IMG/VR virus record: IMGVR_UViG_3300048926_000477
From: a virus
Length of the DNA: 64,000 nt
Reading direction: 5' to 3' (one strand)
Shown here piece by piece: positions 18,985 to 62,152 of this stretch. Below the pieces are notes generated by a model, which was not told where the DNA came from, did not search any database, and worked only from the letters and a program-made list of their open reading frames with translations. Each line of letters begins with the position of its first letter. Positions within the stretch are counted from its first letter, which is position 1. Both the position numbers and the translations under genes were made by a program.

Positions 18985-21598
18985 TGGTGGTCACTCCTTT
19001 GAGTCGGACGACATCGACGCCGCCTTCGGTCTTCCTGTCCACGCGACCCTGCGCGACGAGTTCTTGGATGAGGTCTTCGACTTCCCTGCGCCTGTTTTTG
19101 AACCTCGGGAGCCTGTGAATGGCGGCGAGGGGCATGAATCCGCCGGAGCCGATGACGGCCTGCTCGATCGCGTTCACCTCTCGGGTGCGAAGGGACTCGT
19201 CTGTCCACTCCACGAGGAGCATGATGTTGGTCGCCCACTCCTCCGCCTGCTCGATCGCGACGAGCATGTCGTCCATCGTGATGTTGAGGCGCCCCTCGCT
19301 GAGTGCGACGAGGGCGGCGCAGCGCATGGTGGTTTCCCGGAGGCGGCGGAAGGTCGGCTTAAGGCGGTCGACGTAGTGGGGCCTGCTGTTGGCCAGGGAG
19401 GTCAGCGCGCGCTTGAACTCGCCGTGACGGGCAATGACCTCGCGCGGGATGACCATGCGGTTCGGCTCGAGGGAGTCGGGGCGCGAGACGCGCTGCAGCG
19501 CGCTGGCGAACTCGCTGGCCCACTGCTGATACATCATCGAGCCGGATGCGACCGCTTCGGTGTCCTGGTCGAGCTCGCTGGCGTCGAGGTAGTCATCGTC
19601 GTCATCGTCCTCTGTGGGAAGCTCGCCAATCGCCCAGACGAAGCGGTTGAGGAAGCCGGACTCCCAGTCTTCCGGCGCCATCACATCGGTCATGCCGCGG
19701 GGCGTCCCCATGAAGTGCGCCGTCATGAACGCGCGCGCGCTCTTGCCCGAGATGTCCTTCTTCGTGGCTCGGTAGACCGCGCCCACGTCGCCGTCATAGA
19801 CATCGGTGATGATGCCGGGCATCTCCGAGTAGGGGCCCTGGATCTTCTTCCAGACCTGGATCTTGGTGTGCGCCTCGTCCATGTGGAACCACGTTGGTTT
19901 GCGGTCCTTGGCGATCAGGGTCTCGACGAGCGACTCGGGCGTGTGGTTGCCGCCGATGTCGGGGGTCTCCTCGAGGAGGAAGTAGGCCTTGAAGATGTGC
20001 TTGGCGACCCGCAGGGCCTCGGTCTTGCCGGAGCCGGTGGTACCGACGATGCCTTGGTAGAGGTTCAGGGGGCGGTCATTCTGGCCGGGGCGCGGGAGGA
20101 CCGCGGCGGGGCTGAAGATGACGGACAGCACGGTCCACCGGTTCATGCGGTAGTAGGGCAGGTTCACGGTGTCGAACGTCAGCCGCGCCCAGTCGATCAT
20201 CCGGCTGCCGAACCAGTCGGCGGCCAGCGCGCGTGAGCGCTCAGCCTCCGTCATGAAGCTGACTCGCTCAGGGCCGGCGTAGTTCGGGCGCTCGTCGGCG
20301 GGTGCTGCGGCCACGGTGTCACCGGTGGAGGTTGCAGCCTCGCCGCGTGCCGCCTCGAGCTCACGCCAAAGCTGCTCGTAGGTGATGCACTTCGAATGCT
20401 CGTCGACGTACTGGATGCCGTCGAAGGTGATGCCAGCGAGGCGCGCTGCCGCGGAGTGCCAGACGATCGTCGCGGCCTCCTGGTCGGTGAAGCCCGATGC
20501 CAGGAGCGCCGCGAGCAGCTGACGCCTTCTCCCCCACAGGGCGGCGTCCGTGCCCGCATCGGGGCGCGTCGACCACACCTGATAGAACATCTCCGATCCG
20601 ATCGAAGGGAAGCCCTTGTCGAGCGGGAAGCCGTTCCAGGGAAGGAGCTCTGGGAGGTCGGGCTCCGGCGGCGCCTCGTACTGCCCAGCCGTCTGCTTCT
20701 GCGCGGACTCCCACTGCTCGACGATCTTGTCGGTGCCCCAGGATGGGTAGGTGGGCACGTACTCGAGGAGCAGCTGGAGCGCCTGGTCGTCGTTCAGTGC
20801 GTAAGCGTTCGAGCGCGCGATCCGGGCGAGCCAGCATGCGGCCGCGAAGACGGTGTCGTGCCAGCCGGCGCCGGGAGCCCAGACCTCAGGGAGTCCCTGC
20901 AGGTTCGACACGATCGCGCGCAGCTTGCGCGCCTCCGTCGACGAGGCTACGTCCGGGATGTCACCGTCCCACTGCTGGCTCTGGTGCTCGTGCGAGTTGG
21001 GGTCGACGCGGAGGTAGTCGATCCACGCCTGCGGCAGGTACTCGAGGTCCGTGATGTGCGGCGGCTCTGTCATCGGCTCGCCGTCGGCGTCATACCAGAC
21101 GTACATCGCGCCGTCAGCGTCTGGGTTCACCGAAGGTGCTACCAGCGAGTACCGGTGACGGTACTGGATCACGTCGATGTCGGGCGCGGCCTTGCCGTCC
21201 AGGTCGACCGGCTCCGGGAGCAGGAAGAAGTGCTGTCGGCTCGGGCTGTCGGCGCCACGGCAGGTCGACGAGGGCGTGGCCGGCAGAGGGCCGAGCTTCG
21301 CCTCCAGCTCGGCGAGCTGCTCGGCGCCGTGCTTCGTGCCATAGTCGTCCACGTCGATGCGGACCTCGAGCGGGCCTGCGCGGAGGGCGGTGTTGGCGGT
21401 GCTCGGATCTTGCGTGTGCCATTCGTCAGTCTCGCGGTCGTACCAGCGGAAGCCGCTCTTGACCCACTCTGCGACCTTCTCGGGAGTGACGCTGCCCTGT
21501 GCGCCCGTCGCTCCGGCGGGGACCGGGCGCTTGCCCTTCACCGGGATGGGCAGGAACCCTCGCTCGAGGTAGAAGGGGGCGACGCTGGAGTACGTCAT
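18977..21598 (-). CDS. bifunctional primase-polymerase (PrimPol N-terminal domain) fused to a P-loop SF3/D5-type helicase
   Basis: 873 aa; N-terminal FLPIPVKGKRP is primpol-like; Walker A GIVGTTGSGKTEALRVAK in the C-terminal half. Confidence 0.65.
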   Translation of the reverse strand: MTYSSVAPFYLERGFLPIPVKGKRPVPAGATGAQGSVTPEKVAEWVKSGFRWYDRETDEWHTQDPSTANTALRAGPLEVRIDVDDYGTKHGAEQLAELEAKLGPLPATPSSTCRGADSPSRQHFFLLPEPVDLDGKAAPDIDVIQYRHRYSLVAPSVNPDADGAMYVWYDADGEPMTEPPHITDLEYLPQAWIDYLRVDPNSHEHQSQQWDGDIPDVASSTEARKLRAIVSNLQGLPEVWAPGAGWHDTVFAAACWLARIARSNAYALNDDQALQLLLEYVPTYPSWGTDKIVEQWESAQKQTAGQYEAPPEPDLPELLPWNGFPLDKGFPSIGSEMFYQVWSTRPDAGTDAALWGRRRQLLAALLASGFTDQEAATIVWHSAAARLAGITFDGIQYVDEHSKCITYEQLWRELEAARGEAATSTGDTVAAAPADERPNYAGPERVSFMTEAERSRALAADWFGSRMIDWARLTFDTVNLPYYRMNRWTVLSVIFSPAAVLPRPGQNDRPLNLYQGIVGTTGSGKTEALRVAKHIFKAYFLLEETPDIGGNHTPESLVETLIAKDRKPTWFHMDEAHTKIQVWKKIQGPYSEMPGIITDVYDGDVGAVYRATKKDISGKSARAFMTAHFMGTPRGMTDVMAPEDWESGFLNRFVWAIGELPTEDDDDDDYLDASELDQDTEAVASGSMMYQQWASEFASALQRVSRPDSLEPNRMVIPREVIARHGEFKRALTSLANSRPHYVDRLKPTFRRLRETTMRCAALVALSEGRLNITMDDMLVAIEQAEEWATNIMLLVEWTDESLRTREVNAIEQAVIGSGGFMPLAAIHRLPRFKNRRREVEDLIQELVAQGRVDRKTEGGVDVVRLKGVTTNG

Positions 21599-21661: not shown

Positions 21662-21737
21662 TGGCTCCCCGGGCAGGACTCGAACCTGCGACCAACGGCT
21701 TAACAGGCCGCCGCTCTGCCAACTGAGCTACCGGGGA
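21662..21737 (-). tRNA. tRNA-Asn (anticodon GTT), CCA encoded
   Basis: Manual fold: acceptor tccccgg/ccgggga, D arm gctc-agttggca-gagc, anticodon stem gcggc/gccgt with loop ctGTTaa, T arm gcagg-ttcgagt-cctgc, discriminator g, CCA; 76 nt. Confidence 0.7.
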
Positions 21738-24639: not shown

Positions 24640-24761
24640 CGTGCTGCCCACCTCCTCACCTTGTACGGGTCGCGGCCCTTACGGGCGCTGGTCGGTTCAG
24701 TGCGGATCGGGCGCTTGGCGCCCTGCTCCTGCCTCCTTGGGAGACCACCTGCTCGTCGCAT
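24636..24761 (-). CDS. very basic 41-aa protein (MRRAGGLPRRQEQGAKRPIRTEPTSARKGRDPYKVRRWAAR)
   Basis: SD aaggag 5 nt before ATG 24761; stop overlaps the exonuclease ATG (ATGA); not in the ORF track. Confidence 0.35.
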   Translation of the reverse strand: MRRAGGLPRRQEQGAKRPIRTEPTSARKGRDPYKVRRWAAR

Positions 24762-24867
24762 CTTTTCTCCTTCGTTTCGTGATCTTCGCCCTGCGGCGAT
24801 GACTCAACGATAGCCGTATTTAGCTAGCTAATTCAAGATGCGAGCACCGCTTAATTTGCGGCAGTTT

Positions 24868-27374: not shown

Positions 27375-28595
27375 TCAGCCCTTCACGCAGAGGATTGTGT
27401 CGAGCTTCTGCACGACTTCCACCAGATCGCTCTCGGCGGCGATGACGCTGTCGAGGTCCTTGTAAGCGAGCGAGATCTCGTCGATCACGCCCGCATCGGT
27501 GCGCGCCTCGATGCCCTTCATGGTGCGCTCGACATCCTCGACGGTGAACCGGCGCTTGGCTTCGCCGCGGCTCATCTTGCGGCCGGCGCCGTGGCTGGCC
27601 GACTGGAAGGAGGCTTCGTTGCCGAGTCCACGCACGATGTACGAGCCGGTCGCCATGCTGCCGGGGATGAGCGCCAGCTCCCCCTTCTTCGCGCTGATCG
27701 CGCCCTTGCGGGTGACGATCATCTGTCGACCGTCGATGATCTCCTCGGCGACGTAGTTGTGGTGGCAGTTGATCTCCTCGTCGTAGTCGACGAAGTAGCG
27801 CCCCTCGAGGTGGTCCGACAGCTCACGCTTGACGAGCTCCATCATGATCGTGCGCGAGCGCATCGCGTACTCCTGGGCCCAGTGCAGGTCGTGGAGGTAC
27901 TCGTTCATCTCGGGCGTGCCCTTGTAGAAGAGGGAGAGCTCCTGCAGGTGCTTCGGAAGGTCCTGGTTCACCTCGAGCGACTTGGCCTTCTCGATGTGGC
28001 GGGTGCCGAGCACGTTTCCGATGCCGCGGGAGCCGGAGTGCAGGGTGATCCAGATGCGCTTCTGCGCGTCGGTCGTCAGCTCGATGAAGTGGTTGCCGCC
28101 GCCAAGGCTGCCCATCTGCCGCCAGGCGCGCTCCTCCATCGCCCCCACGGGCGCGAACAGGTCGAGGAAGCGTTCCATGAAGCGGTGGTGATTGTTGGCC
28201 CATGCGTGCCCGAGGAGCTTGCTCACGCGCACGTCGCTCGCGTGCATGTTGTTGCCGACGGGAATGGCGTCCTGGAACCGCTGGCGAAGCATCTTCAGAT
28301 CGCGCTCGTCCAGGTCGTCGAGCACGAGGTTCGTGCGCACGGCGTTCACACCGCAACCGATGTCGACGCCGACGGCGGCCGGCGCGAGCGCCTGCTCCAT
28401 CGCGATCACCGAGCCGACGGTGGCGCCGTTGCCCCAGTGCACGTCGGGCATGACCCTCAGGCCGTACAGGCCCGGCAGCTGGGAGACGCTGCGCAGCTGG
28501 TCGAGCGCGCTGTGCTCGATCTCGTGCTCGTGCGCCCAGGCGAGGACCGGGGCTGCAGTGCCGGAGAGGGTGGTGGGGAACTCGTGGTTGGTCAT
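27375..28595 (-). CDS. rtcB: RtcB-family RNA ligase (3'-phosphate/5'-OH RNA-splicing ligase)
   Basis: 406 aa; signature blocks VGVDIGCG, GGGNHFIEL, HSGSRGIGN, NCHHNY and SASHGAGR (nucleotidyl-His region). Confidence 0.85.
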   Translation of the reverse strand: MTNHEFPTTLSGTAAPVLAWAHEHEIEHSALDQLRSVSQLPGLYGLRVMPDVHWGNGATVGSVIAMEQALAPAAVGVDIGCGVNAVRTNLVLDDLDERDLKMLRQRFQDAIPVGNNMHASDVRVSKLLGHAWANNHHRFMERFLDLFAPVGAMEERAWRQMGSLGGGNHFIELTTDAQKRIWITLHSGSRGIGNVLGTRHIEKAKSLEVNQDLPKHLQELSLFYKGTPEMNEYLHDLHWAQEYAMRSRTIMMELVKRELSDHLEGRYFVDYDEEINCHHNYVAEEIIDGRQMIVTRKGAISAKKGELALIPGSMATGSYIVRGLGNEASFQSASHGAGRKMSRGEAKRRFTVEDVERTMKGIEARTDAGVIDEISLAYKDLDSVIAAESDLVEVVQKLDTILCVKG

Positions 28596-28608: not shown

Positions 28609-30495
28609 TCAGGCGGCGATGCCGCCGGCCATTGCGTTTCGGACAGCCCACTCCTTGGCGATGAGCTGCTGCAGAGAGATCTCGTCGACGCTGCCGCGCA
28701 TGACGAGCTCGACGTGCTGGAAGCCGCCCCACTGCTGGGTCATGCCGGGGCGGAAGTAGCGGCGGATGGACTGCTCGTTGACGGCGGGGTTTCCGTCGGC
28801 CTTGCTGATCCAGATCACCTTGTTGGCGCGGTGCTGGAACCCGTCGAGGCCAGTCCCGAAGGACTGGACGGTGGAGATGAGGTAGGGGAACTCGCCCGCG
28901 AGGAACGCAGCCTTGAGCTTCGCGCGCTCCGGCCGGGACAGGTCGCCGGTCCACGCCCGGGCGTCGTAGCCGGCGCGCTGCATGCGCTTGGCGATGAAGT
29001 GGGCGCCGATCTTCGAGTCGGTGTAGATCGCGACCGGCTGTCCGGCGTAGGCGATGTCCAGGAGGTTCCTCAGGGGAAGGAGCTTGGCGCTGGCGGCGTC
29101 GTCGGCCATGTAGACCGTCTCCTCACCCGTGACCGGATCGACCGTCATCGACAGCTCGGCGATCGCCACCTGGCGCAGGCGTAGGCGCAGGATCGGCGGC
29201 ATGTCCACGACGAGCGGCATCTCCTCGCCCTGCCAGTCGCGCACCCACGTCATGAGGTCGCGCTGCAGGTCATCCATCTGCCGCTGCTGCGCCGGCGTCG
29301 GGTCGCACCGCACGACCTCCGCCTTGGGCACGGGCTCAGTCTCGCGACGGATGTAGCACGGCAGCGTCGCGACGAACTCGCCGGGGATCTTCTCGCCGGC
29401 GACCTTCGTGATCGCATCACCACGCTCACTTGTCAGCGCCTTGCCGCCGCGGCCCAGCACGGGATCGACGGCGAGGTACCGCTCCTTCCAGCGCGAGAAG
29501 CTGGTCTCGATGTACGAGTAGCCCGTCTCCGGGTTCACGCCCGGCCACACCCACCGCGTGATCGACCACATGTTCTCGATCGCGTTCAGGAACCACGTCC
29601 CCGACAGAGCCGCGCGGTAGTCGGCCTTGATCGAGAGGATCGTGCGGCGCGTGTTCGAGCTCTTGTTCGCGATGGCCTGGCACTCGTCGAAGATGATCGC
29701 CTGGAGCGGCTTCCGCGCGAAGCGCCGATACGTCCCCTGGTGCACGCTCTTCGTCTTCACGATCGGCTCGAGCGCCGGCCCGATGGTGTTCTTGCGCGTC
29801 TTGCGGCGCTCGAGGTGCGGCTCCTGTGCGGGGCCGATCGCACCCTCGGGCCGATCACGCAGCAGCAGCTCGCCCTGGAGCGGCCCGTCGGGGCGCGGCT
29901 TGAGCTCCAGGTCTCCCGTCTTCTTCGAGACGCGGTAGACAGGCGAGCCATCCTCCTTGCGCACGACGACGCTCTTCCAGTCCTTCTCGCGCAGGAAGTC
30001 GGCGGTCGCGATGAACACGCCATCCTCGTGCTTCATGAAGGCTTCGTACTGCGCGCGGCCGGGGGTGGAGCCGTTCATGATCCGCACACCCCTGGTGCCA
30101 TCGCTCTGCGCGAGCAAGCGGTCGTTCCACTGCTCGTGCGTGTCGCCCAGCCCGATCAGCAGCATGCGCGTCCATCCGGCCCGGAGGATTACCTCTGCAC
30201 CAATGGCGGTCTTCCCAAAACCGGGCTCGTCGCCGATCAGGATGCCGTCGGACTTCCCCACCTCACCGAGTGCCGCCTGGATCGCGATCTCCTGGCTCGG
30301 CGTGATGCGGCCGCGCAGTTTCGACTGCTCGTCATCGAGCGACCAGTCGACGGGCAGGAACTTCACGATCTTGCGCACGGCGTCGCCCTCGTGGATGTGC
30401 ACGAAGCGGAGAAGGTGCTCGGGCGCCTTCTTGTTCGGCTCCCAGAGGGACTCGCCACACGCAGCGCAGAGCTCGACGGGGGTGGGGATGGTCAT
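28609..30495 (-). CDS. SNF2/DEAD-like superfamily 2 helicase with an N-terminal CxxC element
   Basis: ATG 30495 (MTIPTPVELCAACGES); Walker A GDEPGFGKT; DExx box IIFDECQ; helicase-C block LISTVQSFGTGLDGFQ; the upstream ORF-track extension is rejected. Confidence 0.65.
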   Translation of the reverse strand: MTIPTPVELCAACGESLWEPNKKAPEHLLRFVHIHEGDAVRKIVKFLPVDWSLDDEQSKLRGRITPSQEIAIQAALGEVGKSDGILIGDEPGFGKTAIGAEVILRAGWTRMLLIGLGDTHEQWNDRLLAQSDGTRGVRIMNGSTPGRAQYEAFMKHEDGVFIATADFLREKDWKSVVVRKEDGSPVYRVSKKTGDLELKPRPDGPLQGELLLRDRPEGAIGPAQEPHLERRKTRKNTIGPALEPIVKTKSVHQGTYRRFARKPLQAIIFDECQAIANKSSNTRRTILSIKADYRAALSGTWFLNAIENMWSITRWVWPGVNPETGYSYIETSFSRWKERYLAVDPVLGRGGKALTSERGDAITKVAGEKIPGEFVATLPCYIRRETEPVPKAEVVRCDPTPAQQRQMDDLQRDLMTWVRDWQGEEMPLVVDMPPILRLRLRQVAIAELSMTVDPVTGEETVYMADDAASAKLLPLRNLLDIAYAGQPVAIYTDSKIGAHFIAKRMQRAGYDARAWTGDLSRPERAKLKAAFLAGEFPYLISTVQSFGTGLDGFQHRANKVIWISKADGNPAVNEQSIRRYFRPGMTQQWGGFQHVELVMRGSVDEISLQQLIAKEWAVRNAMAGGIAA

Positions 30496-30502
30496 GGCGG
30501 AG

Positions 30503-31102
30503 TCAGGCAGCCTTCCGTGCGGCGAAGCTGGCGCCCTGCACCCAGGTCTGGATGCGCGTGGCGTAGGGCGCGTGCTGAGACAGCGCGACGACCGGGTGGC
30601 GACCGATGGAGGGCACGAAGGCGGCCGTCTCGGCGCGCCAGAGGCCGGACTTGGCGTCGTAGGAGAACTCGGCGCTCTGCAGCTCCGGGTTCGCATCGAA
30701 CGTCTCGCGGCTCATGGAGAGGGCATCGAGGATGGGGTCGATGTCTGCGGCCTTCGGCGTGACGATGAACCGGCCGGCGCCGGCCGTCTCGAACTCGGGG
30801 CGAGCGTCCTGGGCGATGGCGTCGGCGCTCTCCTTAGCCAGATAAGCCTGGCCCTCGCGGATCGCGTTGTAGGCCGTGATCGTGGCCGTGGTGTGCAGGC
30901 CCTCCTTCGAGATCCTGGTCACGGGGCGGCCAGCGGCCTGCGCCTCGGCGGCCTTGATGCAGCGGAAGACGCGGGCGGCCTCGATCTCCTCCTCCATCTC
31001 CTCGCGGATGCGACGCTCGAGCGTCTTGCGGAGTTCACGCCAGCGGTTGTCGGCGTCGGCGACGGCCTGGATGTACGGGTCGACGTTGGTGGCGGCGGTC
31101 AT
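30503..31102 (-). CDS. hypothetical protein
   Basis: 199 aa from ATG 31102 (MTAATNVDPYIQ); SD aggagc. Confidence 0.4.
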   Translation of the reverse strand: MTAATNVDPYIQAVADADNRWRELRKTLERRIREEMEEEIEAARVFRCIKAAEAQAAGRPVTRISKEGLHTTATITAYNAIREGQAYLAKESADAIAQDARPEFETAGAGRFIVTPKAADIDPILDALSMSRETFDANPELQSAEFSYDAKSGLWRAETAAFVPSIGRHPVVALSQHAPYATRIQTWVQGASFAARKAA

Positions 31103-37576: not shown

Positions 37577-38160
37577 GCGGTCACCTGCAGGCTCTCGGCG
37601 GCGTGGGCGCTGAACGCGTCGACCATGGCGGCGTGCATCGCGCGTCGAGTGTTGGCGTCTATGGCCGCGCTGTAGAACTCGCGCGCGCCCTCATCCTGGC
37701 GGTACTTGTCCCACGGGGCGCGGTTGTTGTTCGAGAGGTAGCCGAGGCTGTGCCCGTAGTCCTTCGCGGCGGCGATGAGCGCGGCGCGGTATTCCTGCAC
37801 GGTCCACGCGGGCAGGTCGAGCGTGAGGGCGTCGAACTCGGTGCTGAGCGTCGCGCTCATGCGGTCGGTGAGCGCGTTGGACCAGATGCCGCCGCGCAGG
37901 CCGTAGCCCGCGTGCTCGATCTGGTGATACGTGCCCACGTCCGACAGGTGCCGCGTGGTGCGCCCGATCTTGACCAGGGTTTCCCCGCTCAGACGGTCGC
38001 CGTTCGGCTGCACCGGCGAGATCACGGCTCGCTTGTGGTACATGTCGCCGGCGTCGTCCACGCTGCGCGCGTCCCAGATCATCCAGAGCACGGGTTCACC
38101 GGTTTCGGCGATGGTGAGGCTCGGCAGGGAGAACGTGTCGCCGTAGGTGAGGGTGCTCAC
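37573..38160 (-). CDS. hypothetical protein
   Basis: GTG 38160 with GTGA overlap; VSTLTYGDTFSLPS... Confidence 0.4.
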   Translation of the reverse strand: MSTLTYGDTFSLPSLTIAETGEPVLWMIWDARSVDDAGDMYHKRAVISPVQPNGDRLSGETLVKIGRTTRHLSDVGTYHQIEHAGYGLRGGIWSNALTDRMSATLSTEFDALTLDLPAWTVQEYRAALIAAAKDYGHSLGYLSNNNRAPWDKYRQDEGAREFYSAAIDANTRRAMHAAMVDAFSAHAAESLQVTA

Positions 38161-39023
38161 AGGGACACCTCCCCGGCGATGACGCGGCGCGCGAAGTCGG
38201 CGGCCCACTTAGACACGTCCTGCTCGCTCAGCGAGCCCTCACGGCTGTAGTCCTCCGCGGCCTCAAGCGCCAGGTTCTCGACGTAGGCGACGGTGGGCCC
38301 GCTCTCCTCCCCGCGGGCGATGCGGACGGCGGCGATCGCAATGTCGCGCGCCTCGTCGGCATCCTGTGACAGAATCCAGTTCGAGCTACTGACGATCCGC
38401 TCGGCGATCTGCTCGGGGGTAGCCGCGAGCGTCTCGCGTACCGCGGCGGCGAGCACGTCAGCGGTGTTCTCGTCGCCCCCCTCGCGGTCATACCGCGCAT
38501 AGGCCTCGGCGAGCGGCGTCCGGAGAGCGAGTCCCTTCTCTGCCAGCGTGTCGCGCTCGCTCCACCCGCTCACGTAGGCGTCGGTGAGCATGGACAGAAC
38601 GCCGTCCAGCTCGATCAGGCTCGGGATGCCGTCGAAGGCGTCACCTGCGGCGCTGCGCGCGTAGGCGCGTCCGCGCTCGTGCAGGACTTCCATGTCGACG
38701 GCGATGCGCAGTGCAGTGGTCGCTCCCTTGACGCCCTGAGCGTCGGGAGCGCCGGTCGCCAGGGCGTAGGCCTCGATGCTGGGCGGCTCGATCTCGTCGG
38801 CGCGGGCGGTCAGGTCGGCGGCGAGGGTGCGAGCCTGTTCAGGCGTGAGCCTCGCGGCGGGGCCGTTGTACTCGCTCGCGTAGCGCATCCACAGGCCGAT
38901 AGCTTCCGCGCCGCTGTTGGCGCCGATCTCGGTTTCAGTGGCGTCATACGCATTGTGCGGCACGGCGGGCACGGTCATCGTCAGGGCGTGGTGTGCCTTG
39001 CGGGGCGTGGGGTTCGTGTTCAT
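38157..39023 (-). CDS. first gene of the leftward early operon, hypothetical Ala/Glu-rich protein
   Basis: ATG 39023 (MNTNPTPRKAHHALTMTV) preceded by ggag; lies downstream of the predicted promoter at 39100-39129. Confidence 0.45.
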   Translation of the reverse strand: MNTNPTPRKAHHALTMTVPAVPHNAYDATETEIGANSGAEAIGLWMRYASEYNGPAARLTPEQARTLAADLTARADEIEPPSIEAYALATGAPDAQGVKGATTALRIAVDMEVLHERGRAYARSAAGDAFDGIPSLIELDGVLSMLTDAYVSGWSERDTLAEKGLALRTPLAEAYARYDREGGDENTADVLAAAVRETLAATPEQIAERIVSSSNWILSQDADEARDIAIAAVRIARGEESGPTVAYVENLALEAAEDYSREGSLSEQDVSKWAADFARRVIAGEVSL

Positions 39024-39074
39024 GGGAGGTATCTCCGGTCTGTGGAGCGGGTGTCTAGGTGGGGGCGCGGGGCC

Positions 39075-39087
39075 TTTATCTAGATGA
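39075..39087. repeat. palindromic operator-like site tttaTCTAGAtga, downstream of the promoter -10
   Basis: Member of the TTAGCTAGCTAA / TTATCTAGATAA family (at least 16 copies in the window). Confidence 0.5.
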
Positions 39088-39099
39088 TCCGACGATCCC

Positions 39100-39129
39100 A
39101 CCCTAGGGGCGGTGTGTGCTGTGAGTCAA
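39100..39129 (-). promoter_or_regulatory. candidate early leftward sigma-A-type promoter (-35 TTGACT, 18-nt spacer, -10 TAGGGT)
   Basis: On the - strand: TTGACT (+39129..39124), an 18-nt spacer, then TAGGGT (+39105..39100); flanked by two palindromic TTATCTAGATAA-type sites. Confidence 0.45.
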
Positions 39130-39132
39130 CAC

Positions 39133-39146
39133 TTTATCTAGATAAT
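39133..39146. repeat. palindromic operator-like site TTTATCTAGATAAT abutting the promoter -35
   Basis: Perfect palindrome TTATCTAGATAA; same family as above. Confidence 0.5.
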
Positions 39147-39149
39147 CTG

Positions 39150-39610
39150 AGCGGTCGTGATGTGCACAGGCCGCTGTGGAGGGCGTGGACGGGGCTCGAC
39201 GTTGTGCGAATCGTCAATCGGCCGTATTTGGCTGAGTCTGGAGAGGCCGTCCGTATTTGTTCGTGCTTAAGGCCGTATTCAGTTGCTTATCCCCGTATGT
39301 ATGCTTACGACTTCGTATAAAGTATCGCGAACAAATAAGCGAATCCGTAAGCATGCTTATGCCGATATGCAAGTGCTTATGGCGATATGCACGGCTAAAT
39401 ACGGGGAGTCATTTCCCATGGATAAAGGGAAGTAGGGGTGTAGAGGTGTGGGGGTGTGTGTGTGGTGTGTGTAGTTGTATATTCACAAACATTCGTACAT
39501 GGGGGTACGGCGTGCGGCGTTTGGGGGCTCAAAAATCGGGCCTGAAAACGTCGCTGTGGGAACCTACAAACACACGGGGCCTGTTGAGTTGTTCTGAGGG
39601 CGGGGTGGCC
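39150..39610. other. AT-rich non-coding region with iterons and tandem repeats (candidate replication origin / regulatory hub)
   Basis: No credible ORF and GC far below the genome mean; CCGTATTY in 4 direct copies plus 1 inverted copy (39230-39406); 19-bp tandem tgcttatgCcgatatgca / tgcttatgGcgatatgca (39352-39392); 9-bp inverted repeat atgcttacg / cgtaagcat; GT-rich tract 39425-39480. Confidence 0.5.
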
Positions 39611-39753
39611 TAGCTCGAGAGGGGCGGCGGGGTGTACCGGATGCGGCCGGATCGGGTGAGGTTGGCATCCGGGGCGATGCGCTTGACGTGGCGGGCGCAG
39701 CGGCGGGCGAGGGTGGCAGCTTTGGCACCGGGGGTGCGGGTGCGGTCCGACAT
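39610..39753 (-). CDS. small very basic protein (47 aa)
   Basis: MSDRTRTPGAKAATLARRCARHVKRIAPDANLTRSGRIRYTPPPLSS; SD aaagga; not in the ORF track. Confidence 0.35.
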   Translation of the reverse strand: MSDRTRTPGAKAATLARRCARHVKRIAPDANLTRSGRIRYTPPPLSS

Positions 39754-39991: not shown

Positions 39992-40183
39992 TCATGCGGA
40001 CACCTCATCCCCGTTAGCGGCGATGATTCGCCGCGTTTGCGCAACGCTCAGTCGTGCGGCACGCGCGATCTCAGCGGCAGGCACACCCTCGCGGTGCGCG
40101 GCGAGAATCTGGCGGTTGCGACCCTCCGCGCTAACCCGCGAGGCGGCGCGTACTGTGTCGAGAATCAGCGGCCACGCGATCAT
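39992..40183 (-). CDS. small HTH regulator (sigma-70 region-4-like / excisionase-like)
   Basis: 63 aa; GVPAAEIARAARLSVAQTRRIIA is a classic helix-turn-helix. Confidence 0.45.
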   Translation of the reverse strand: MIAWPLILDTVRAASRVSAEGRNRQILAAHREGVPAAEIARAARLSVAQTRRIIAANGDEVSA

Positions 40184-41447: not shown

Positions 41448-41692
41448 GGAACAAGTCTACCGTGAGTGCTTAGGTTTAGCTAGATAAATATGTAGTGTGG
41501 GGGAAGTGAGAACCATACTCAACACACGACGGGGAGGGTGGGAGCGGGGCAAGCGACACGAGCGCGCGGATTGGCGACCGCGGGAAACCACTCAGATTTT
41601 CAGAGCGCGGGCGAAGGGCGCGGAGGGTGGGGCGCCCCCACGCGCAGATTTTTCTTCTCCCCCAAATCGGCCATTCCGCTACCATCGGCCCC

Positions 41693-42782: not shown

Positions 42783-43721
42783 ATGTTCCTGCTCATCCTC
42801 GCGATCGCGCTCGCGCTCGTCGGCCTGGTGGCCGCCGCGGCCGCGTTCTTCTCGCGCAACGTCAGATTCGCCGCGGTGATCGTCGCGATCATCGCCTTCA
42901 TCGGTGGCGGCGTGTCGCTGTTCTCCGCCACGTTCTACGCCAACGGCGTCGGCGAGGCCAAGGTGCTCGTCAACAGCGTCGACAAGACCGTCGTCGGCAC
43001 CATCGAGGAGCCCGGTTCGGGCTTCAAGGCGCCCTGGATCGACTTCGTCGACTTCGACTTGTTCTCCCAGGAGCTCCTCTACGCCGGCTCCGGTGACTCC
43101 ACCCCTTCGTACTCCGGCGGCTCGGTCTCGGGCGCTGAGGTGACCGTCTCGGTCGGCGGCGCGAACGGCGGCTCCACTCAGGCCAACGTCGACATCTCGG
43201 TGACCTACAGCGTCGACGCGGATGCCGTCGAGGCGATCTACGAGGGCTACCGCTCGCAGGAGCGCTTCACCAAGCAGGTCATCGAGAAGACGATCCTCTC
43301 GACGATCCGCAGCGTCCCCTCGGCCTACTCCGCAACCGACTTCCGTGGCGCATCGCGCACCGAGGCCGCCGACATCATCACGAAGCAGCTGAACGAGAAG
43401 CTGCAGCCCCTCGGCGTCAACGTCGACTTCGTGAACATCCAGAACGTCACCTACCCCGACGAGGTGGAGGCCGCGCTGAAGGACGTGGAGGTGGCGAACC
43501 AGAAGCAGCAGAAGGCCCAGGCTGACCTGCGCGCCGCGGAGACCGCCGCCCAGCAGAAGGTCGTCGAGGCCCAGGCCGAGTCGGACGCCAACGGCATCCT
43601 GAGCGCCAGCCTCACCCCGCAGGTGCTCGAGCAGCGCCGCATCGACGCCCTGCTGAAGGCCGCCGAGTCCGGCAGCCTCATCGTCGACGGCGGTGGCGGC
43701 GGGATCCTCATCCAGAAGTAA
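42783..43721 (+). CDS. SPFH / band-7 (stomatin-prohibitin-flotillin-HflK/C) domain membrane protein
   Basis: 312 aa; N-terminal 2 TM segments, then a typical SPFH core (ADIITKQLNEKLQPLGVNVDFVNIQNVTYPDEVEAALKDVEVANQ) and a C-terminal coiled coil. Confidence 0.65.
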   Translation: MFLLILAIALALVGLVAAAAAFFSRNVRFAAVIVAIIAFIGGGVSLFSATFYANGVGEAKVLVNSVDKTVVGTIEEPGSGFKAPWIDFVDFDLFSQELLYAGSGDSTPSYSGGSVSGAEVTVSVGGANGGSTQANVDISVTYSVDADAVEAIYEGYRSQERFTKQVIEKTILSTIRSVPSAYSATDFRGASRTEAADIITKQLNEKLQPLGVNVDFVNIQNVTYPDEVEAALKDVEVANQKQQKAQADLRAAETAAQQKVVEAQAESDANGILSASLTPQVLEQRRIDALLKAAESGSLIVDGGGGGILIQK

Positions 43722-50261: not shown

Positions 50262-50576
50262 ATGACCCCCACCCCGAAGCCCACGCCCCGCCCGCAGGCG
50301 ACCGCCACCCCTTCCGCGGCCCAGTCGGCCCCCGCCGCAGATCTGTCCTTGCTCGACAAGGAGCTCGAGGATCTGCTCATCGAGGAGGTCTCACTCAAGG
50401 ATGCGGTCGCGTCCCTGATCGCCGCGCTCGAGCTGGATGAGCGCGATGTCCAGTCGATCGACATCCGCCCGCACGGCACAATCCGCCTCCGCCTCGAGGG
50501 CAACGTCGCGCGCTCGATCACCTTCCCCGCCCTGCAGCGTCACAAGCGCGACGACGAGAACCGCATCATCCGATGA
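50262..50576 (+). CDS. hypothetical protein
   Basis: 104 aa. Confidence 0.4.
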   Translation: MTPTPKPTPRPQATATPSAAQSAPAADLSLLDKELEDLLIEEVSLKDAVASLIAALELDERDVQSIDIRPHGTIRLRLEGNVARSITFPALQRHKRDDENRIIR

Positions 50577-51151
50577 ACGGGCTCAGGATCCTCGTCGACC
50601 TGGACGGCGTCGTCGCCGACTGGGGAGGCGCCTACGGGCGCCGCCTCGACGCCTACGGCGCCGCAGCCGCCGGCATCCCTCGACACCGCGACCAGCTCAC
50701 CTTCGACCTGAACGAGGGGCGCACGGACGCCGAGAAGCGCATCATCGCCGCCATCATGGTGGAGCCCGGCTTCTACGCCGAGCTCGAGCCGATCGCCGGC
50801 GCGCGCTCCGTGCTGAAGGCGCTGCGTGCACAGGGCCACGAGATCTACTTCGTGACCAGCCCGTGGGTGTCCAATCCCACCTGCGCGAGCGACAAGCTCA
50901 ACTGGGTCGCCCGCGTCTACGGCGACCACTGGGCCCAGCGCACGATCATCACCTCCGAGAAGCACCTCGTCCGCGGTGACGTGCTCATCGACGACAAGCC
51001 CGAGATCAAGAACGCCGCCGACGCCGAGTGGCGCCACATCCTCTTCACGCAGCCCTACAACGCACACATCGACGATCATCGAGCGCGGCTCGACAGCTGG
51101 ACGCTCGATGGCGCGGCGTGGGCGATCACGCAGGCGGTGATGGGGCGATGA
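50573..51151 (+). CDS. HAD-family 5'(3')-deoxyribonucleotidase
   Basis: LVDLDGVVAD (HAD motif I), a YFVTSP-type motif II, GDVLIDDKPE (motif III/IV). Confidence 0.55.
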   Translation: MNGLRILVDLDGVVADWGGAYGRRLDAYGAAAAGIPRHRDQLTFDLNEGRTDAEKRIIAAIMVEPGFYAELEPIAGARSVLKALRAQGHEIYFVTSPWVSNPTCASDKLNWVARVYGDHWAQRTIITSEKHLVRGDVLIDDKPEIKNAADAEWRHILFTQPYNAHIDDHRARLDSWTLDGAAWAITQAVMGR

Positions 51152-51375
51152 CCGCCGCGAATCTCGTCCCTCACGGCCACATGAAGCAGTGGAACGTCAC
51201 CGGCGTCGCGCTCTTCCCCGCCAGCAAGCCTGACCAGAAGCCGCAAGACCGTACGGTCATGGCCGAGCTCTTCATCGGTGGCATCTGGGCGCCGACGATC
51301 GCCGAGGCCGAGCAGAAGTTCGCCGAGGCGTTCACCTTCGACGTGCGCGTCACGAAGGTCGAGGGGCACCGATGA
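51148..51375 (+). CDS. hypothetical protein
   Basis: 75 aa. Confidence 0.4.
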   Translation: MTAANLVPHGHMKQWNVTGVALFPASKPDQKPQDRTVMAELFIGGIWAPTIAEAEQKFAEAFTFDVRVTKVEGHR

Positions 51376-51974
51376 CCGCCCTCGTCGTCGGCCTCGGTGG
51401 CGCGCTGCGCTCCGGCAAGGACGCCATCGCAGATCACCTCGTCGCTCGCCACGGCTTCGTGAAGAAGGGCATGAGTGACCCGCTGCTCGAGCATGCCCTG
51501 ATCCTCGATCCGTACATCCCCGTGAACGCACACCCGGCTCGGGACATGCAAGGCGCCCTCAACGGCACCTTCATCCGGCTGTCGCACCTCGTCGAGGCTG
51601 TCGGCTACGTCGAAGCCAAGACCAACCCGGAGGTGCGCCGATTCATGCAGCAGGACGGCACCGAGGGTGGGCGTGACTTCCACGACGAGAACGTCTGGGT
51701 CAACCGCGCTGCGCGCGCGATCGACGACCACCTCTACGCCGACCAGCGCGTCGTGCTGACCGGCGTCCGCTTCCCGAATGAGCTCGCCATGGTGCGCCAG
51801 TTCGCCGGGAGCACCTGGTGGGTCTCACGGCCGGGCCTAGACTCCGCCTCTTCGGCCGCGGCGCACGCCAGCGAGAACGGCGTCGATGCGGCCATGTTCG
51901 ACCACATCATCACGAACGCCGGCTCGCTGGAGGATCTCTACGCGGCCGTCGACAGACTCATGGAGACCCTGTGA
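51372..51974 (+). CDS. deoxynucleoside monophosphate kinase-like P-loop kinase
   Basis: Walker A GLGGALRSGKD; sits among nucleotide-metabolism genes. Confidence 0.55.
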   Translation: MTALVVGLGGALRSGKDAIADHLVARHGFVKKGMSDPLLEHALILDPYIPVNAHPARDMQGALNGTFIRLSHLVEAVGYVEAKTNPEVRRFMQQDGTEGGRDFHDENVWVNRAARAIDDHLYADQRVVLTGVRFPNELAMVRQFAGSTWWVSRPGLDSASSAAAHASENGVDAAMFDHIITNAGSLEDLYAAVDRLMETL

Positions 51975-53250: not shown

Positions 53251-54675
53251 ATGGAAACCGTTACGGATAAGGCCAGCCGTGCGCTGCCCACCTCATCCAT
53301 CAGTACCGACAAGGAATACTTCGCCACCCGCTACAAGCAGGGTGGTCGCACCGTTTACTCCCTGGCCCAGAGCCCAACGCAGGTCACCGGCCTGGTCAAG
53401 CGTCCTGACCCTAGCGCGTCGAACCCGGGAAACCGCCGAATCCGCCCGGACCACGCGAGCGCCTTCGCGCGCTACCTCATCGAGAACGACAATTGGGTCA
53501 TCCCGGGCATCATCCTGCGCGCGCCGAGCATCTTCAGCTTCGAGGAGGACGCCGACGCGGTTGGCTTCCAGACGGGCGTGATGCGCTACGCCGAGCGCAA
53601 CCAGGGCGATATCCAGATACTCGACGGCCAGCACCGAATCCTCGGCTTCCACATGGCTCACGACATGCTGGACGCTCGCATGGACAAGGCGCGGTCGGCC
53701 CGAGCCACCGCGCGCCGCGTGCAGGACGACAACGCAATCAAGGCCGCCGAGGCCGAGATCCGCCAGCTTGACGCCGTGCGCGAGCGCCTCGCGACCGAGC
53801 GCTTCACGGTCGAGATCCACGTAACCGACGACCTGCAGGCGTACCGCCAGATGTTCTTCGATATCGCGGAGAACGCGCTCGGCATCACCGCCTCCGTCAA
53901 GGCGCGCTTCGATGCGCGGAAGGTCGTCAACCGCGCGCTGCCGACGGTGCTCGAGCAATCCCTCCTTGAGGGGCGAGTGGACCTCGAAGCCGACCGCATC
54001 CCGCCGACGAGCACCTACTACCTCGCCGCGCGACACGTCATGGAGACGCTGCGGGTGCTGACCGTCGGCTACGACGGCCGTGTGAGCAAGCGGATGGACA
54101 AGGAGATGAGCGAGGTGGAGATCGCACGCCGCGGCGTGGAGTTCTTCGACGGCCTCGTCGCTGCCTTCCCCGTTCTCACCACGCTCAAGGCCGGTCAGAT
54201 CACGCCCGAGCAGATCCGCAAGAGCTCGCTCATGGGCTCGCCGGCCTTCATCCGCGTGCTCGCCGGTGTCTTCTACGAGCTGACCACGAACCACTCCTAC
54301 ACGCCGAGCATGGTGTTCGAGTTCTTCGGCCGCCTGGCGAAGCACACCAACGCTTCTGCGCACGCCAACTCGATCTGGCGCAAGTACGCTGCTCCCGAGG
54401 CGTTCCACGAGGGCGCCTGGGGCCCGAACCAGCGCCGCCAGGACGCCAAGGGCCTCGTCATGACGATCGCCGACTGGGCGATCGACAAGGAGCCCTTCGT
54501 CGACGCCGAGGCCGAGCCGGCGCCGGTGATCGAAGAGGAAGAGATCGACGAGGACGCACTGATCGACTTCGCCATGGGCCACAACACGAAGCCCCTGGAC
54601 GTGGAGCTGCGCAACGAGGCCGAGGATATCGCCGCTGCGTCGAAAGCCCGCGTGAAGGCCAAGACCACGTCGTAG
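53251..54675 (+). CDS. DGQHR-domain (DndB-like, ParB/Srx-fold) protein
   Basis: 474 aa; exact motif QILDGQHRILG with an upstream FQTGVMRYAERNQGD block, as in DndB/DGQHR proteins; SD ggag; followed by a strong terminator. Confidence 0.65.
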   Translation: METVTDKASRALPTSSISTDKEYFATRYKQGGRTVYSLAQSPTQVTGLVKRPDPSASNPGNRRIRPDHASAFARYLIENDNWVIPGIILRAPSIFSFEEDADAVGFQTGVMRYAERNQGDIQILDGQHRILGFHMAHDMLDARMDKARSARATARRVQDDNAIKAAEAEIRQLDAVRERLATERFTVEIHVTDDLQAYRQMFFDIAENALGITASVKARFDARKVVNRALPTVLEQSLLEGRVDLEADRIPPTSTYYLAARHVMETLRVLTVGYDGRVSKRMDKEMSEVEIARRGVEFFDGLVAAFPVLTTLKAGQITPEQIRKSSLMGSPAFIRVLAGVFYELTTNHSYTPSMVFEFFGRLAKHTNASAHANSIWRKYAAPEAFHEGAWGPNQRRQDAKGLVMTIADWAIDKEPFVDAEAEPAPVIEEEEIDEDALIDFAMGHNTKPLDVELRNEAEDIAAASKARVKAKTTS

Positions 54676-62151: not shown

Positions 62152-62152
62152 G

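Follow-up and report, generated by a model that had tools for sequence, protein, structure and literature searches.

The origin of phage lambda consists of four iterons of about 18 to 19 bp with internal dyad symmetry and an adjacent AT-rich region, and it needs nearby transcription. P1 oriR, F, and pSC101 are iteron plasmid origins with DnaA boxes, and phage P4 ori/alpha resembles the SaPI origins. The SaPI, lambda, and plasmid origins all lie in or beside the initiator gene. In the SaPI origins, self-loading Rep helicases bind iterons that flank an AT-rich center, two or more per side (PMC9371898), and semi-palindromic direct repeats are typical of the RepA_N iterons found in Gram-positive plasmids and in the Vibrio PLE (PMC7145576). 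An RNA-based, non-RepA origin, which is non-coding and contains no protein gene, has been proposed for the prophages of cluster A mycobacteriophages (PMC7157519). As for priming, the pRN1 primase requires GTG in its template (PMC2034472).

We analyzed a 64-kb stretch of DNA, here called the window (IMG/VR record IMGVR_UViG_3300048926_000477), from an uncultivated Microbacterium-type phage. A sequence-only reading had proposed a replication origin at 39150-39610, in non-coding DNA directly upstream of the replication operon. The DNA is indeed non-coding, but the true gap extends from 39024 to 39609 (586 bp), where small early genes give way to a long operon (Table 1). SNF2 lies 8.3 kb downstream and the PrimPol-DUF3987 primase-helicase about 17.4 kb away; both belong to the same minus-strand block, but "directly" was generous. 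In 200-bp windows, the GC content of the gap fell to 0.445, compared with a window mean of 0.671 (sd 0.035), and no other stretch fell below 0.545. Positions 39275-39375 formed the least stable 100-bp duplex of the window (z = 5.0), but at the 30- to 50-bp scale a divergent region near 41,470 equaled the gap in instability. Repeats were nearly absent from this alternative site (41.45-41.63 kb). GC skew across the window tracked gene orientation and was therefore uninformative, as replication and transcription were inseparable.

Table 1. Coordinates of the gap, its elements, and nearby genes in the window
Feature	Position	Strand	Remarks
Gap borders	39023; 39610	-	ATG of the 288-aa gene; stop of the 47-aa gene
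288-aa orphan protein gene	38157-39023	-	first after gap; GGAG upstream of ATG
Palindrome TTATCTAGATGA	39076-39087	none	12 bp; downstream of -10, predicted 5' leader
Candidate sigma-70-type promoter	39100-39129	-	TTGACT 39124-39129, 18-nt spacer, TAGGGT 39100-39105
Palindrome TTATCTAGATAA	39134-39145	none	12 bp; directly upstream of -35
Extra CCGTATTT half-site	39222-39229	+	outside core; kept in L011, deleted in L010
Core	39251-39406	none	156 bp
CGAACAAATACGG block	39251-39263		last core element, minus-strand reading
Iteron 4	39264-39281		core, minus-strand reading
Iteron 3	39284-39301		core, minus-strand reading
Inverted 8-mer	39302-39309		core, between spacer and iteron 3
AT-rich spacer	39310-39345		36 bp; core center, between iteron pairs
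Inverted 8-mer	39346-39353		core, between iteron 2 and spacer
Iteron 2	39354-39371		core, minus-strand reading
Iteron 1	39374-39391		core, minus-strand reading
CCCCGTATTTAGCCG block	39392-39406		first core element, minus-strand reading
Inverted repeat TTCCC-N9-GGGAA	39413-39431	none	arms invariant in three lineages
G-free tract	39418-39483	-	66 nt, ~50% C on sense strand; GT-rich and C-free on +
Proximal leader after stop codon	39484-39609	-	short invariant blocks
47-aa arginine-rich protein gene	39610-39753	-	last early gene before gap
PrimPol-DUF3987 primase-helicase	18977-21598		same long minus-strand block as SNF2
SNF2	28609-30696		first recognizable replication gene
Candidate terminase and portal genes	~16 kb from gap		no Pfam match; by position upstream of capsid
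Capsid gene	60249-61403

The repeats of the gap form a 156-bp core. Its four 18-bp iterons (consensus TGCAYAYSGSSATAAGCA) are semi-palindromic, share one orientation, and follow a 2+2 layout with a 20/70/20-bp register around a spacer of 61-64% AT in a 67% GC genome, whereas the CCGTATTT-type half-sites outside the iterons are mutually opposed. Iterons 1 and 2 differ at one base, with zero such matches expected by chance. They are the tandem repeat that had been described as a 19-mer; the single difference stands, but the units are 18-mers with a 20-bp period, and the pair was incomplete, with two further degenerate copies at 39264 and 39284 in the same 20-bp register. A weight matrix made from iterons 1 and 2 alone ranked iterons 3 and 4 directly after them across the whole window, and no second (crr-like) iteron cluster was found elsewhere in the 64 kb. 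CCGTATTY had six exact matches in the 64 kb (0.69 expected), four of them in the gap. Among the four direct copies and one inverted copy claimed earlier, three direct copies (39222, 39251, and 39273) and the inverted one at 39397 were recovered, but the fourth direct copy is the near-copy CCGTATGT at 39293. The 9-bp inverted repeat ATGCTTACG / CGTAAGCAT was found as described (39301-39309 and 39346-39354). These repeats are far above chance expectation and exclusive to the locus. The core thus has at least three clustered, non-coding, putative sites for one protein, as iteron origins do, and, in the spacer, an adjacent AT-rich element that should melt easily according to predicted duplex stability.

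The exact iteron type was found in only three independent lineages (the window, L010, and L011), and a wider comparison covered 13 related loci, with fourfold sites (0.615 invariant) as the neutral reference. The core was exactly 156 bp in the three lineages, while its flanks carried indels. Sequence constraint was seen in iterons 1 and 2 (32/38 invariant) and the flanking CCGTATTT block (CCCCGTATTTAGCCG, 15/15), but iterons 3 and 4 were no more conserved than neutral sites, nor was the G-free tract, nor the entire core taken together (105/156, P = 0.08). The spacer kept its length and AT content across lineages but not its sequence or orientation, since the spacer of L010 matches the reverse complement of that in the window (27/36 matches, compared with 15/36 in direct orientation). 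Such a spacer fits a site of unwinding and not a promoter, an ORF, or a directional RNA. Active flipping of the spacer was considered and rejected, as the orientation of the window recurred in three other samples. Within lineages, the repeat copies were altered in concert, e.g., from CCGTATT to CCGTCTT in L024.

A low-GC gap with a sense-strand excess of C over G occupied the syntenic position in all 13 loci, so that this type of locus is conserved beyond the exact iterons. It was immediately preceded by a gene of the arginine-rich (~45 aa) family in 11 of them, and by unrelated short genes in the sister lineage of L014 and L016; a sliding-clamp-like assignment for the upstream gene of L023 had no Pfam support. 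The sister lineage carried perfect TTATCCACA DnaA-box sequences in the gap (three in L014 and two in L016) and, at the same position, an AT tract (25-26/30). No DnaA box (TTATCCACA or TTGTCCACA, a consensus that may not be that of the host) was present within one mismatch in the gap of the window; TTATCCATG, with 7/9 matches, was rejected because it exceeds one mismatch and is lost in L010. Annotated phages and plasmids gave neither near-identical nor distant DNA matches, and when IMG/VR and JGI metagenomes were scanned for exact patterns of the invariant blocks, only chance matches in unrelated low-GC contigs appeared. No relatives of the anchor protein were found in IMG/VR, and neither the 196-aa protein nor the arginine-rich ones were found in isolated phages.

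The most strongly conserved element of the gap is located just outside the interval proposed earlier. This block of the candidate promoter and two palindromes (39076-39145) was invariant at 66 of 70 positions, compared with 0.615 at neutral sites (P = 2.5e-10), and the TTATCTAGATAA palindrome was invariant in the three lineages. The promoter assignment is tentative, as a strict E. coli consensus scan left 39100-39129 unflagged, and is based on the -10 element, which is of the actinobacterial TANNNT type; judging from the sequence, the promoter probably drives the long minus-strand gene block starting at 39023. The palindrome family has 12 sites in the window, compared with 0.07 expected, located at gene starts throughout the early region. 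It had been suggested that one protein may bind both the palindromes and the CCGTATTT sites, as CCGTATTT flanks the palindromes. We found such a flank at one of the 12 sites (24814-24831) and not at the other 11; the two motifs are distinct with one other site in common, and a shared protein is unsupported.

On the early side of the core, the (GT)n tract noticed earlier was confirmed at 39436-39475, within the G-free tract. The longest G-free run on the same sense strand in 11.4 kb of flanking sequence was 32 nt, compared with 66 nt here, and the plus strand of the tract had the highest GTG density in the 64 kb (11 GTG/60 nt). Its composition, but not its sequence, was kept in the three lineages. 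The rut sites of E. coli Rho are C-rich, and the tract has the properties of such sites, being untranslated, C-rich, G-poor, weakly structured, located after a stop codon (by 126 nt), and within or above the length of about 60 to 80 nt. It is a candidate for a rut-like Rho-loading site on the early transcript or for a GTG-rich priming template. In the leader that precedes it, the block TGTAGGTTCCC (39557-39567, minus strand) was invariant in the alignment, but the leader overall (48/87 invariant) showed no excess over neutral sites. No conserved terminator hairpin was found in the leader, and a possible intrinsic terminator at 39494-39509 was rejected because its stem is lost in L010 and L011. 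The short inverted repeat beside the core had a different 9-nt loop in L010, and L020 and L023 have TTCC/GGAA-type inverted repeats at the equivalent position.

The 47-aa arginine-rich protein belongs to a family of 41 to 63 aa with a C-terminal T(R/V)SGRxR motif and was 98-100% identical across the three lineages, with all differences from L011 being synonymous. It had no Pfam or PDB homolog, and a ribosomal protein L34-like identity was rejected, as Pfam gave no match at E <= 10. Another early protein, of 71 aa, has a putative helix-turn-helix. A 63-aa HTH protein (39992-40183) is unlikely to be the iteron binder because it is absent from L010 and L011, which keep the iterons. The genes adjoining the gap are orphans in which no initiator domains were recognized; Microbacterium phage Namago lacks an equivalent gap and has only one domain in common with the 288-aa protein. 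The PrimPol-helicase is a pRN1-type Prim-Pol fused to a helicase, with no sequence match among solved structures.

Compared with these systems, the locus resembles the lambda ori and its O-some in having four iterons with dyad symmetry, an AT-rich region, and a promoter nearby. However, the lambda ori lies inside the O gene with the AT-rich region beside the iterons, whereas here the AT-rich spacer is between them, and the window yielded no O-like protein. The L014 and L016 gaps, which combine perfect TTATCCACA, an AT tract, and other repeats in one non-coding region, are similar to P1 oriR, F, and pSC101, unlike the gap of the window with its lack of DnaA boxes. The SaPI origins (Rep/Pri-Rep) likewise have an AT-rich center, at least two repeats per side, and some opposed sites, and both the SaPIs and this phage encode a primase that is either fused to a helicase or paired with one, but not a separate loader (PMC9371898). 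On the other hand, SaPI iterons are 5 to 6 nt long and lie immediately 3' of rep (PMC9371898), whereas those described here are 18-bp semi-palindromes at a distance from the PrimPol-helicase. The RepA_N iterons are likewise semi-palindromic direct repeats but are unrelated in sequence to those of the window, in which we detected no protein of the RepA_N type. The non-RepA origins of cluster A serve extrachromosomal maintenance with parABS, and no repeated motifs have been reported for them (PMC7157519), whereas repeats dominate the present locus and no lysogeny or partition genes were detected.

We regard the gap as a composite control region, the core of which is most likely the replication origin of the phage, a reading that we hold tentatively and at slightly under even probability. 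We infer the binding protein, melting, helicase loading, priming, and replication initiation from the arrangement of the elements. A phage-encoded DNA-binding protein would occupy the four phased iterons and the opposed CCGTATTT half-sites flanking the spacer, and the resulting complex would distort and then melt the spacer, at which the PrimPol-DUF3987 primase-helicase would be loaded. The C-free, GTG-dense strand beside the core could be the first priming template, and the candidate promoter, which would fire away from the core, may help opening. At the level of sequence comparison, the exclusive repeats, the fixed core, the uncompensated RNA pairs (see below), and the DnaA boxes and AT tract of the sister lineage strengthen the origin reading. 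The origin proposed from the sequence alone is thus the best single explanation and has gained comparative support, although no initiator gene adjoins the site.

Several observations count against an origin, and a control region for transcription alone is almost as good a fit. The site is neither in nor beside a recognizable initiator gene, unlike iteron origins, and a DnaA-box cluster, expected of a DnaA-dependent origin, was found only in L014 and L016. The array exceeds neutral sites in conservation only in part, its exact type is limited to three lineages, and at the 30- to 50-bp scale the instability of the gap is matched near 41,470. The strand asymmetry of all 13 gaps is not needed for an iteron origin and points to a single-strand or RNA-level function. 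An early-to-middle transcriptional switch without origin function is a real rival because the strongest constraint falls on a promoter with two palindromic, operator-like sites, which suggests that the conservation of the gap is largely transcriptional; still, we consider it somewhat unlikely. In such a switch, the G-free tract, which is C-rich and incapable of providing a start codon or Shine-Dalgarno sequence, would be a Rho-loading site ending the early operon, and the palindromes, whose family marks early-region gene starts, would be operators timing the long operon. The iterons would be a phased platform for an early regulator, e.g., the 71-aa protein, in a looped complex resembling the phi29 p4/p6 switch, and the arginine-rich microprotein might be an antiterminator that binds RNA in the manner of N. 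The location of the gap at the operon border, its strand-specific skew, and the near invariance of the 71- and 47-aa proteins in every lineage with these motifs all agree with this. However, the array, located upstream of the -35 element at a distance of 122 to 277 bp, does not overlap any recognizable promoter, and four or more phased sites around an AT spacer of fixed length and free orientation are more origin-like than operator-like. The DnaA-box sequences and long AT tract of L014 and L016 are also better explained by an origin, and neither a conserved terminator hairpin nor a boxA/boxB-like element nor detectable antiterminator similarity of the microprotein was found. The two readings could be combined if the ~45-aa protein and the G-depleted gap formed one cis/trans module, an N/nut-like gate atop an origin served by the PrimPol-helicase. 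The microprotein would then bind the nascent C-rich leader or single-stranded GT-rich DNA and in this way permit read-through or the opening of the iteron core. The module would be analogous to lambda N/nutR-tR1, with a small early protein rich in arginine and, ahead of the next operon, an untranslated C-rich stretch poor in G and a short hairpin, but the protein has no sequence similarity to N, and no boxA/boxB is conserved in the three lineages. We know of no processive antitermination system or such a lytic origin in actinobacteriophages, and we consider the module improbable.

Neither RNA structure nor coding capacity of the gap was supported. One frame was open in the three lineages but was rejected as an ORF because almost all nucleotide differences alter the amino acid. 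A non-coding RNA, whether C-rich sense, G-rich antisense, or a replication primer, would be in line with the strong strand asymmetry, the kept arms and variable loop of TTCCC-N9-GGGAA, a few double changes that preserve predicted pairs, and the precedent of RNA-based actinophage origins without a protein gene (PMC7157519). Rfam, however, gave no match for the gap even at E <= 10 except spurious miRNA-hairpin matches, and the gap has no conserved promoter-like or terminator-like site for such an RNA. Most predicted pairs break where the sequences differ, with unfavorable covariation energies on both strands (+8.3 and +5.0 kcal/mol), in a test whose power is limited by the use of three close lineages. 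The spacer inversion would reverse any RNA motif carried there, and the G-free tract is kept by composition only. A long hairpin from 65-nt quasi-palindromic arms was rejected since its pairs are uncompensated; the quasi-palindrome is a by-product of the symmetrically arranged semi-palindromic sites. The broken pairs and the inverted spacer argue for a DNA-protein assembly site rather than an RNA, which we consider quite unlikely. By eye, the G-rich strand of L010 and L011, but not of the window, has a canonical G-quadruplex motif in the gap; thirteen such motifs occur across the window. Other DNA sites, namely a partition centromere, a packaging site, attP, or a sponge for a host protein, are very unlikely. 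Clustered repeats are likewise a property of parS, pac, and attP arm sites, and the perfect DnaA-box sequences of L014 and L016 could titrate DnaA. However, a Pfam scan of about 50 window proteins found no ParA/ParB, integrase, or repressor family, and the candidate terminase and portal genes are remote from the gap. The homologous gap in a chromosomal locus of Microbacterium sp. T32 is unsplit, on a 551-kb contig and between phage genes; if the T32 locus is an integrated prophage, attP is excluded. The sRNA, packaging, and partition functions offered earlier as alternatives thus have no positive support.

To our knowledge, the lytic replication origins of actinobacteriophages are essentially unmapped. 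We know the phage family itself only from metagenomes and a single Microbacterium genome. Our analysis provides a compact, testable candidate, with a 156-bp core, defined iterons, an orientation-free spacer, and a neighboring strong promoter. If confirmed as an origin, it would show how a phage with a PrimPol-helicase chooses its start site, would assign a function to a conserved microprotein, and may provide Microbacterium genetics with a regulated promoter and a replicon that depends on the phage. If it is purely regulatory, the region would still mark the transition from early to middle genes in this phage group, together with its operator family.

A 586-bp gap (39024-39609) separates two minus-strand genes, one for a 47-aa protein and one for a 288-aa orphan whose ATG lies at 39023. 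The sequence-only reading had proposed most of this gap, 39150-39610, as a candidate replication origin, and its observation was confirmed with small corrections. The gap is by far the window's lowest-GC stretch (0.445 over 200 bp versus a mean of 0.671, sd 0.035), and it does contain the reported 9-bp inverted repeat and GT tract, the latter being part of a 66-nt C-free run of the plus strand (longest comparable flank run, 32 nt). CCGTATTY occurs six times in the window, where 0.69 are expected, and four of these copies are in the gap; three are direct and one is inverted, the supposed fourth direct copy being a near-copy. The tandem repeat has two copies differing at one base (zero expected), but it consists of 18-mers with a 20-bp period, not of 19-mers. 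The least stable 100-bp duplex in the 64 kb lies at 39275-39375 (z = 5.0); at the 30- to 50-bp scale, the divergent promoter region near 41,470 matches it in instability. Another low-GC stretch between genes, smaller than the first, lies at 24652-24867 (minimum GC, 0.55 over 200 bp). It contains CCGTATTTAGCTAGCTAA and a 9-bp perfect inverted repeat (24756-24764/24835-24843), and nowhere else does the CCGTATTT motif directly adjoin one of the palindromes described below.

The table gives the 156-bp core as read on the minus strand, along which transcription runs. Its four 18-mers (iterons 1 to 4) share a single orientation and the consensus TGCAYAYSGSSATAAGCA, and each is semi-palindromic. This internal symmetry accounts for a 65-nt, 72%-complementary inverted repeat reported by a repeat-finding tool and for the recurrence of CCGTATT, one flavor of the half-site. 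The iterons start 20, 70, and 20 bp apart, and therefore all sites share a 10-bp register. When a weight matrix was built from iterons 1 and 2 alone, iterons 3 and 4 ranked next in the 64 kb, with 19.3 and 18.2 bits, and the best unrelated site scored 15.1 bits. The window has no second iteron cluster.

A candidate promoter lies between two copies of a 12-bp palindrome (39134-39145 and 39076-39087), and no part of the gap is under stronger constraint than the 70-bp block so formed. A strict Escherichia coli consensus scan did not flag the promoter; it was assigned from its actinobacterial TANNNT-type -10 element and the conservation of the block. With up to 2 mismatches allowed, the palindrome TTAKCTAGATAA is found 12 times in the window, versus 0.07 expected. 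Most of these sites fall in short stretches between genes in the 23.6- to 49.3-kb interval, where they coincide with or closely precede the start of a gene on either strand. Stop codons are present in each of the motif's six frames, and the related locus L009 has two copies of a variant, TTAGCGCGCTAA. Members of the family probably serve as operators for an early regulator, or else as elements associated with starts.

Coordinates of features in the window and its relatives, with invariant columns among three lineages and P values versus the neutral rate
Feature	Coordinates	Strand	Detail	Invariant columns	P
Core, first half	from 39406 down	-	CCCCGTATTTAGCCG, TGCATATCGCCATAAGCA, CT, TGCATATCGGCATAAGCA, TGCTTACG, then spacer		
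Core, after 36-bp AT-rich spacer	down to 39251	-	CGTAAGCA, TACATACGGGGATAAGCA, AC, TGAATACGGCCTTAAGCA, CGAACAAATACGG		
Whole 156-bp core	39251-39406			105/156	0.08
CCCCGTATTTAGCCG	39392-39406			15/15	0.0007
Iterons 1 + 2	39354-39391			32/38	0.002
Iterons 3 + 4	39264-39301			20/38	0.9
G-free tract + hairpin	39407-39483			47/77	0.58
Promoter + two palindromes	39076-39145			66/70	2.5e-10
Candidate promoter	39129-39100	-	TTGACT, 18-nt spacer, TAGGGT; just outside 39150-39610		
Palindrome sites	23633, 24820, 39076, 39134, 40409, 41002, 41476, 42227, 45803, 49279				
Weaker palindrome sites	30834, 35209				
Arginine-rich gene, window	39610-39753	-			
Arginine-rich gene, relatives	L009 4178-4303; L018 4092-4226; L019 3671-3805; L020 3875-4066; L023 2899-3032; L024 and L026 4001-4135; L025 1188-1322				
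Primase-helicase	18977-21598	-	Prim-Pol/DUF3987		
tRNA-Asn(GTT)	21662-21737	-			
RtcB RNA ligase	27375-28595	-	Pfam E = 2.8e-109		
SNF2 helicase	28609-30696	-			
SPFH/Band 7 protein	42783-43721	+			
5'-Deoxynucleotidase + dNMP kinase	50573-51974	+	adjacent pair		
DndB-like protein	53251-54675	+	linked to DNA sulfur modification		
GDSL lipase/acylhydrolase domain protein	62102-64000	+	large; runs off window end		

Searches with exact proteins and with profiles turned up two independent lineages that share the window's synteny, one from a JGI metagenome (L010) and one on a 71-kb Logan contig (L011), and three more contigs identical to the window. The neutral baseline for the three lineages was taken from fourfold-degenerate sites of a flanking gene (70-82% pairwise identity; three-way invariance, 0.615). 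The core has the same length in all three, the flanks carry several indels, and the 36-bp spacer keeps its length and an AT content of 61-64%. The L010 spacer (within L010 1312-1847) is the reverse complement of the window's 39310-39345, with 27/36 positions identical when inverted versus 15/36 when direct. It lies between inverted 8-mers and is inverted relative to both the window and L011; the window's orientation was also present in three other samples. Flips between inverted repeats are seen in hairpin loops of other genomes, and we infer a small evolutionary flip of this kind here. The role of the spacer would then not depend on which way round it lies, and would depend little on its sequence, since length and AT content are kept while the L010 sequence is inverted; this fits an unwinding or looping spacer and argues against a promoter, ORF, or directional RNA motif inside it. 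By eye, the L010 and L011 gaps (alignment A3, columns about 290-330) show four G-runs of at least 3 with short loops, a canonical G-quadruplex motif, on the strand complementary to the C-rich leader, the L010 version being telomere-like (GGGTTAAGGGTTAGGGGG). The window has only three such G-runs in its gap and thirteen G-quadruplex motifs overall.

Ten more loci were reached with two profiles, one of the 47-aa protein and one of a 196-aa protein whose gene lies two genes downstream of the gap. All 13 loci have a gap of 325-600 bp with a GC content of 0.50-0.60 (flanks, 0.67-0.70) and a sense-strand C>G skew of -0.28 to -0.40 (flanks, -0.02 to -0.11). In 11 of them the gene directly before the gap encodes an arginine-rich protein of 41-63 aa whose C terminus bears a T(R/V)SGRxR motif, and every locus with this gene has the low-GC gap immediately after it. 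These proteins make up a new family, with only seven clusters among 5.8 billion proteins and no Pfam or PDB homolog found. CCAAATACG-type motifs are enriched 46-300 fold in the gaps and present in five of six lineage groups, and CA tracts occur in the gaps of four. Repeat copies change in concert within lineages, e.g., L024 has three tandem CCGTCTT where L018 has CCGTATT, which suggests that they co-evolve with a phage-encoded binding protein. The short genes preceding the gaps of L014 (5441-6000) and L016 (3185-3721) are unrelated to the arginine-rich family. These two gaps, which belong to a sister lineage, hold three and two perfect copies, respectively, of the canonical DnaA-box sequence TTATCCACA, a tract in which 25-26 of 30 nt are A/T, and repeats (TAAGCAC, TGCATA) resembling the window's. 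The perfect TTATCCACA(G) copies are all in one orientation; there is also a G-free AT tract of 47 nt and an inverted repeat, CTTAGGTAAATG...CATT...CCTAAG, whose inner arms differ on both sides between the two loci.

The window (67% GC) is a segment of a siphovirus-like phage genome. Plus-strand genes from 1 to 15.5 kb encode a tail tube protein and, in a 1463-aa ORF, the probable tape measure; minus-strand genes from 15.8 to 41.4 kb encode the primase-helicase, an AAA_24 protein, an exonuclease, RtcB, the SNF2 helicase, and many orphans; and plus-strand genes resume from 41.6 to 64 kb, with the capsid module at the end. RtcB and tRNA-Asn(GTT) together suggest a counter-measure against host anticodon nucleases. 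Relatives among isolated phages are distant, at the protein level only, and infect Microbacterium, Clavibacter, and Arthrobacter. Microbacterium is suggested as the host genus because a relative of a neighboring gene sits within a chromosome contig of Microbacterium sp. T32. This locus (L023; NZ_LQQP01000012.1 229191-241634) has the same microprotein, gap, and 230-aa gene. Its central position in a 551-kb chromosomal contig raises the possibility that the phage group includes temperate members or prophage remnants, although the window yielded no integrase. The window's proteins are carried by a JGI contig of 287,596 bp, about 4 x 71.9 kb, and a JGI contig of 211,160 bp, about 3 x 70.4 kb, carries a relative. 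Since both lengths approximate whole multiples near the 68-71 kb of apparently complete relatives, these contigs may be concatemers, in which case about 8 kb of structural genes would be missing between the window's end and start.

The most likely function of the core is an origin of replication, to which we give slightly less than an even chance. It resembles SaPI origins, in which at least two repeats lie on each side of a central AT-rich region, some sites being opposite in orientation, and which are recognized by self-loading Rep helicases, some fused to primase (PMC9371898). Semi-palindromic direct repeats like the 18-mers are a usual trait of RepA_N iterons (PMC7145576). Among the phage's own proteins is a Prim-Pol of the pRN1 type, fused to a helicase; for the pRN1 enzyme, GTG in the template is a strict requirement (PMC2034472). 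No other 60-nt stretch in the window is as dense in GTG as the C-free strand next to the core, and in all gaps GTG on the C-poor strand is at 2-3 times background. This density is a lead only, because GTG tracks the general C/A-richness of the sense strand. Repeats are nearly absent from the divergent region at 41.45-41.63 kb, the rival location for an origin. Against an origin, no initiator gene was found next to the core, no DnaA box turns up in the window's own gap even with one mismatch allowed, measurable sequence constraint falls on only part of the array, and the conserved strand asymmetry suggests a function at the RNA or single-strand level, for which an iteron origin has no need.

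The main rival, and a serious one, is an early-to-middle transcriptional switch, which we consider somewhat less probable than an origin. Here, the G-free, C-rich tract, which is incompatible with a start codon or Shine-Dalgarno sequence, resembles a Rho-loading site at which the early operon would end; an early regulator might use the array as its platform, the palindromes might be operators, and the arginine-rich protein might be an N-like antiterminator. A 71-aa early protein, whose C terminus reads helix-turn-helix-like, and the 47-aa one are nearly invariant wherever the motifs occur; a 63-aa HTH protein is unlikely to be the iteron binder, being absent from L010 and L011. Origin and switch are mutually compatible, and origins beside strong promoters are common. 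It is improbable that the gap makes a non-coding RNA, whether or not this primes an origin in the manner proposed for cluster A mycobacteriophages (PMC7157519). Rfam gave no match at gathering thresholds and only spurious miRNA-hairpin matches at E up to 10; RNAalifold predicted a long hairpin on both strands, but its pairs are mostly broken where lineages differ, and the covariation terms were unfavorable (+8.3 and +5.0 kcal/mol), with limited power from three lineages only. A coding ORF was rejected: one reading frame runs through the core without a stop in each of the three lineages, but nearly all nucleotide differences alter the amino acid. As these tests went against RNA and ORF, the core is best described as a putative DNA-level array of protein-binding sites. 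Partition, packaging, attP, and host-factor sponge functions are jointly the least probable, with no integrase, Par, or repressor family among about 50 proteins scanned and a homologous gap intact within the chromosomal Microbacterium locus.

Iterons, an AT-rich spacer, and a promoter make up an already known kind of element, and the gap sequences had no match among annotated phages or plasmids. What is unusual is the distance of the core from the replicase gene, the G-free tract, the inversion of the spacer between lineages, and the microprotein gene preceding most of the gaps. An origin-like region in a phage would be unsurprising to a specialist; the element is well defined and directly testable.
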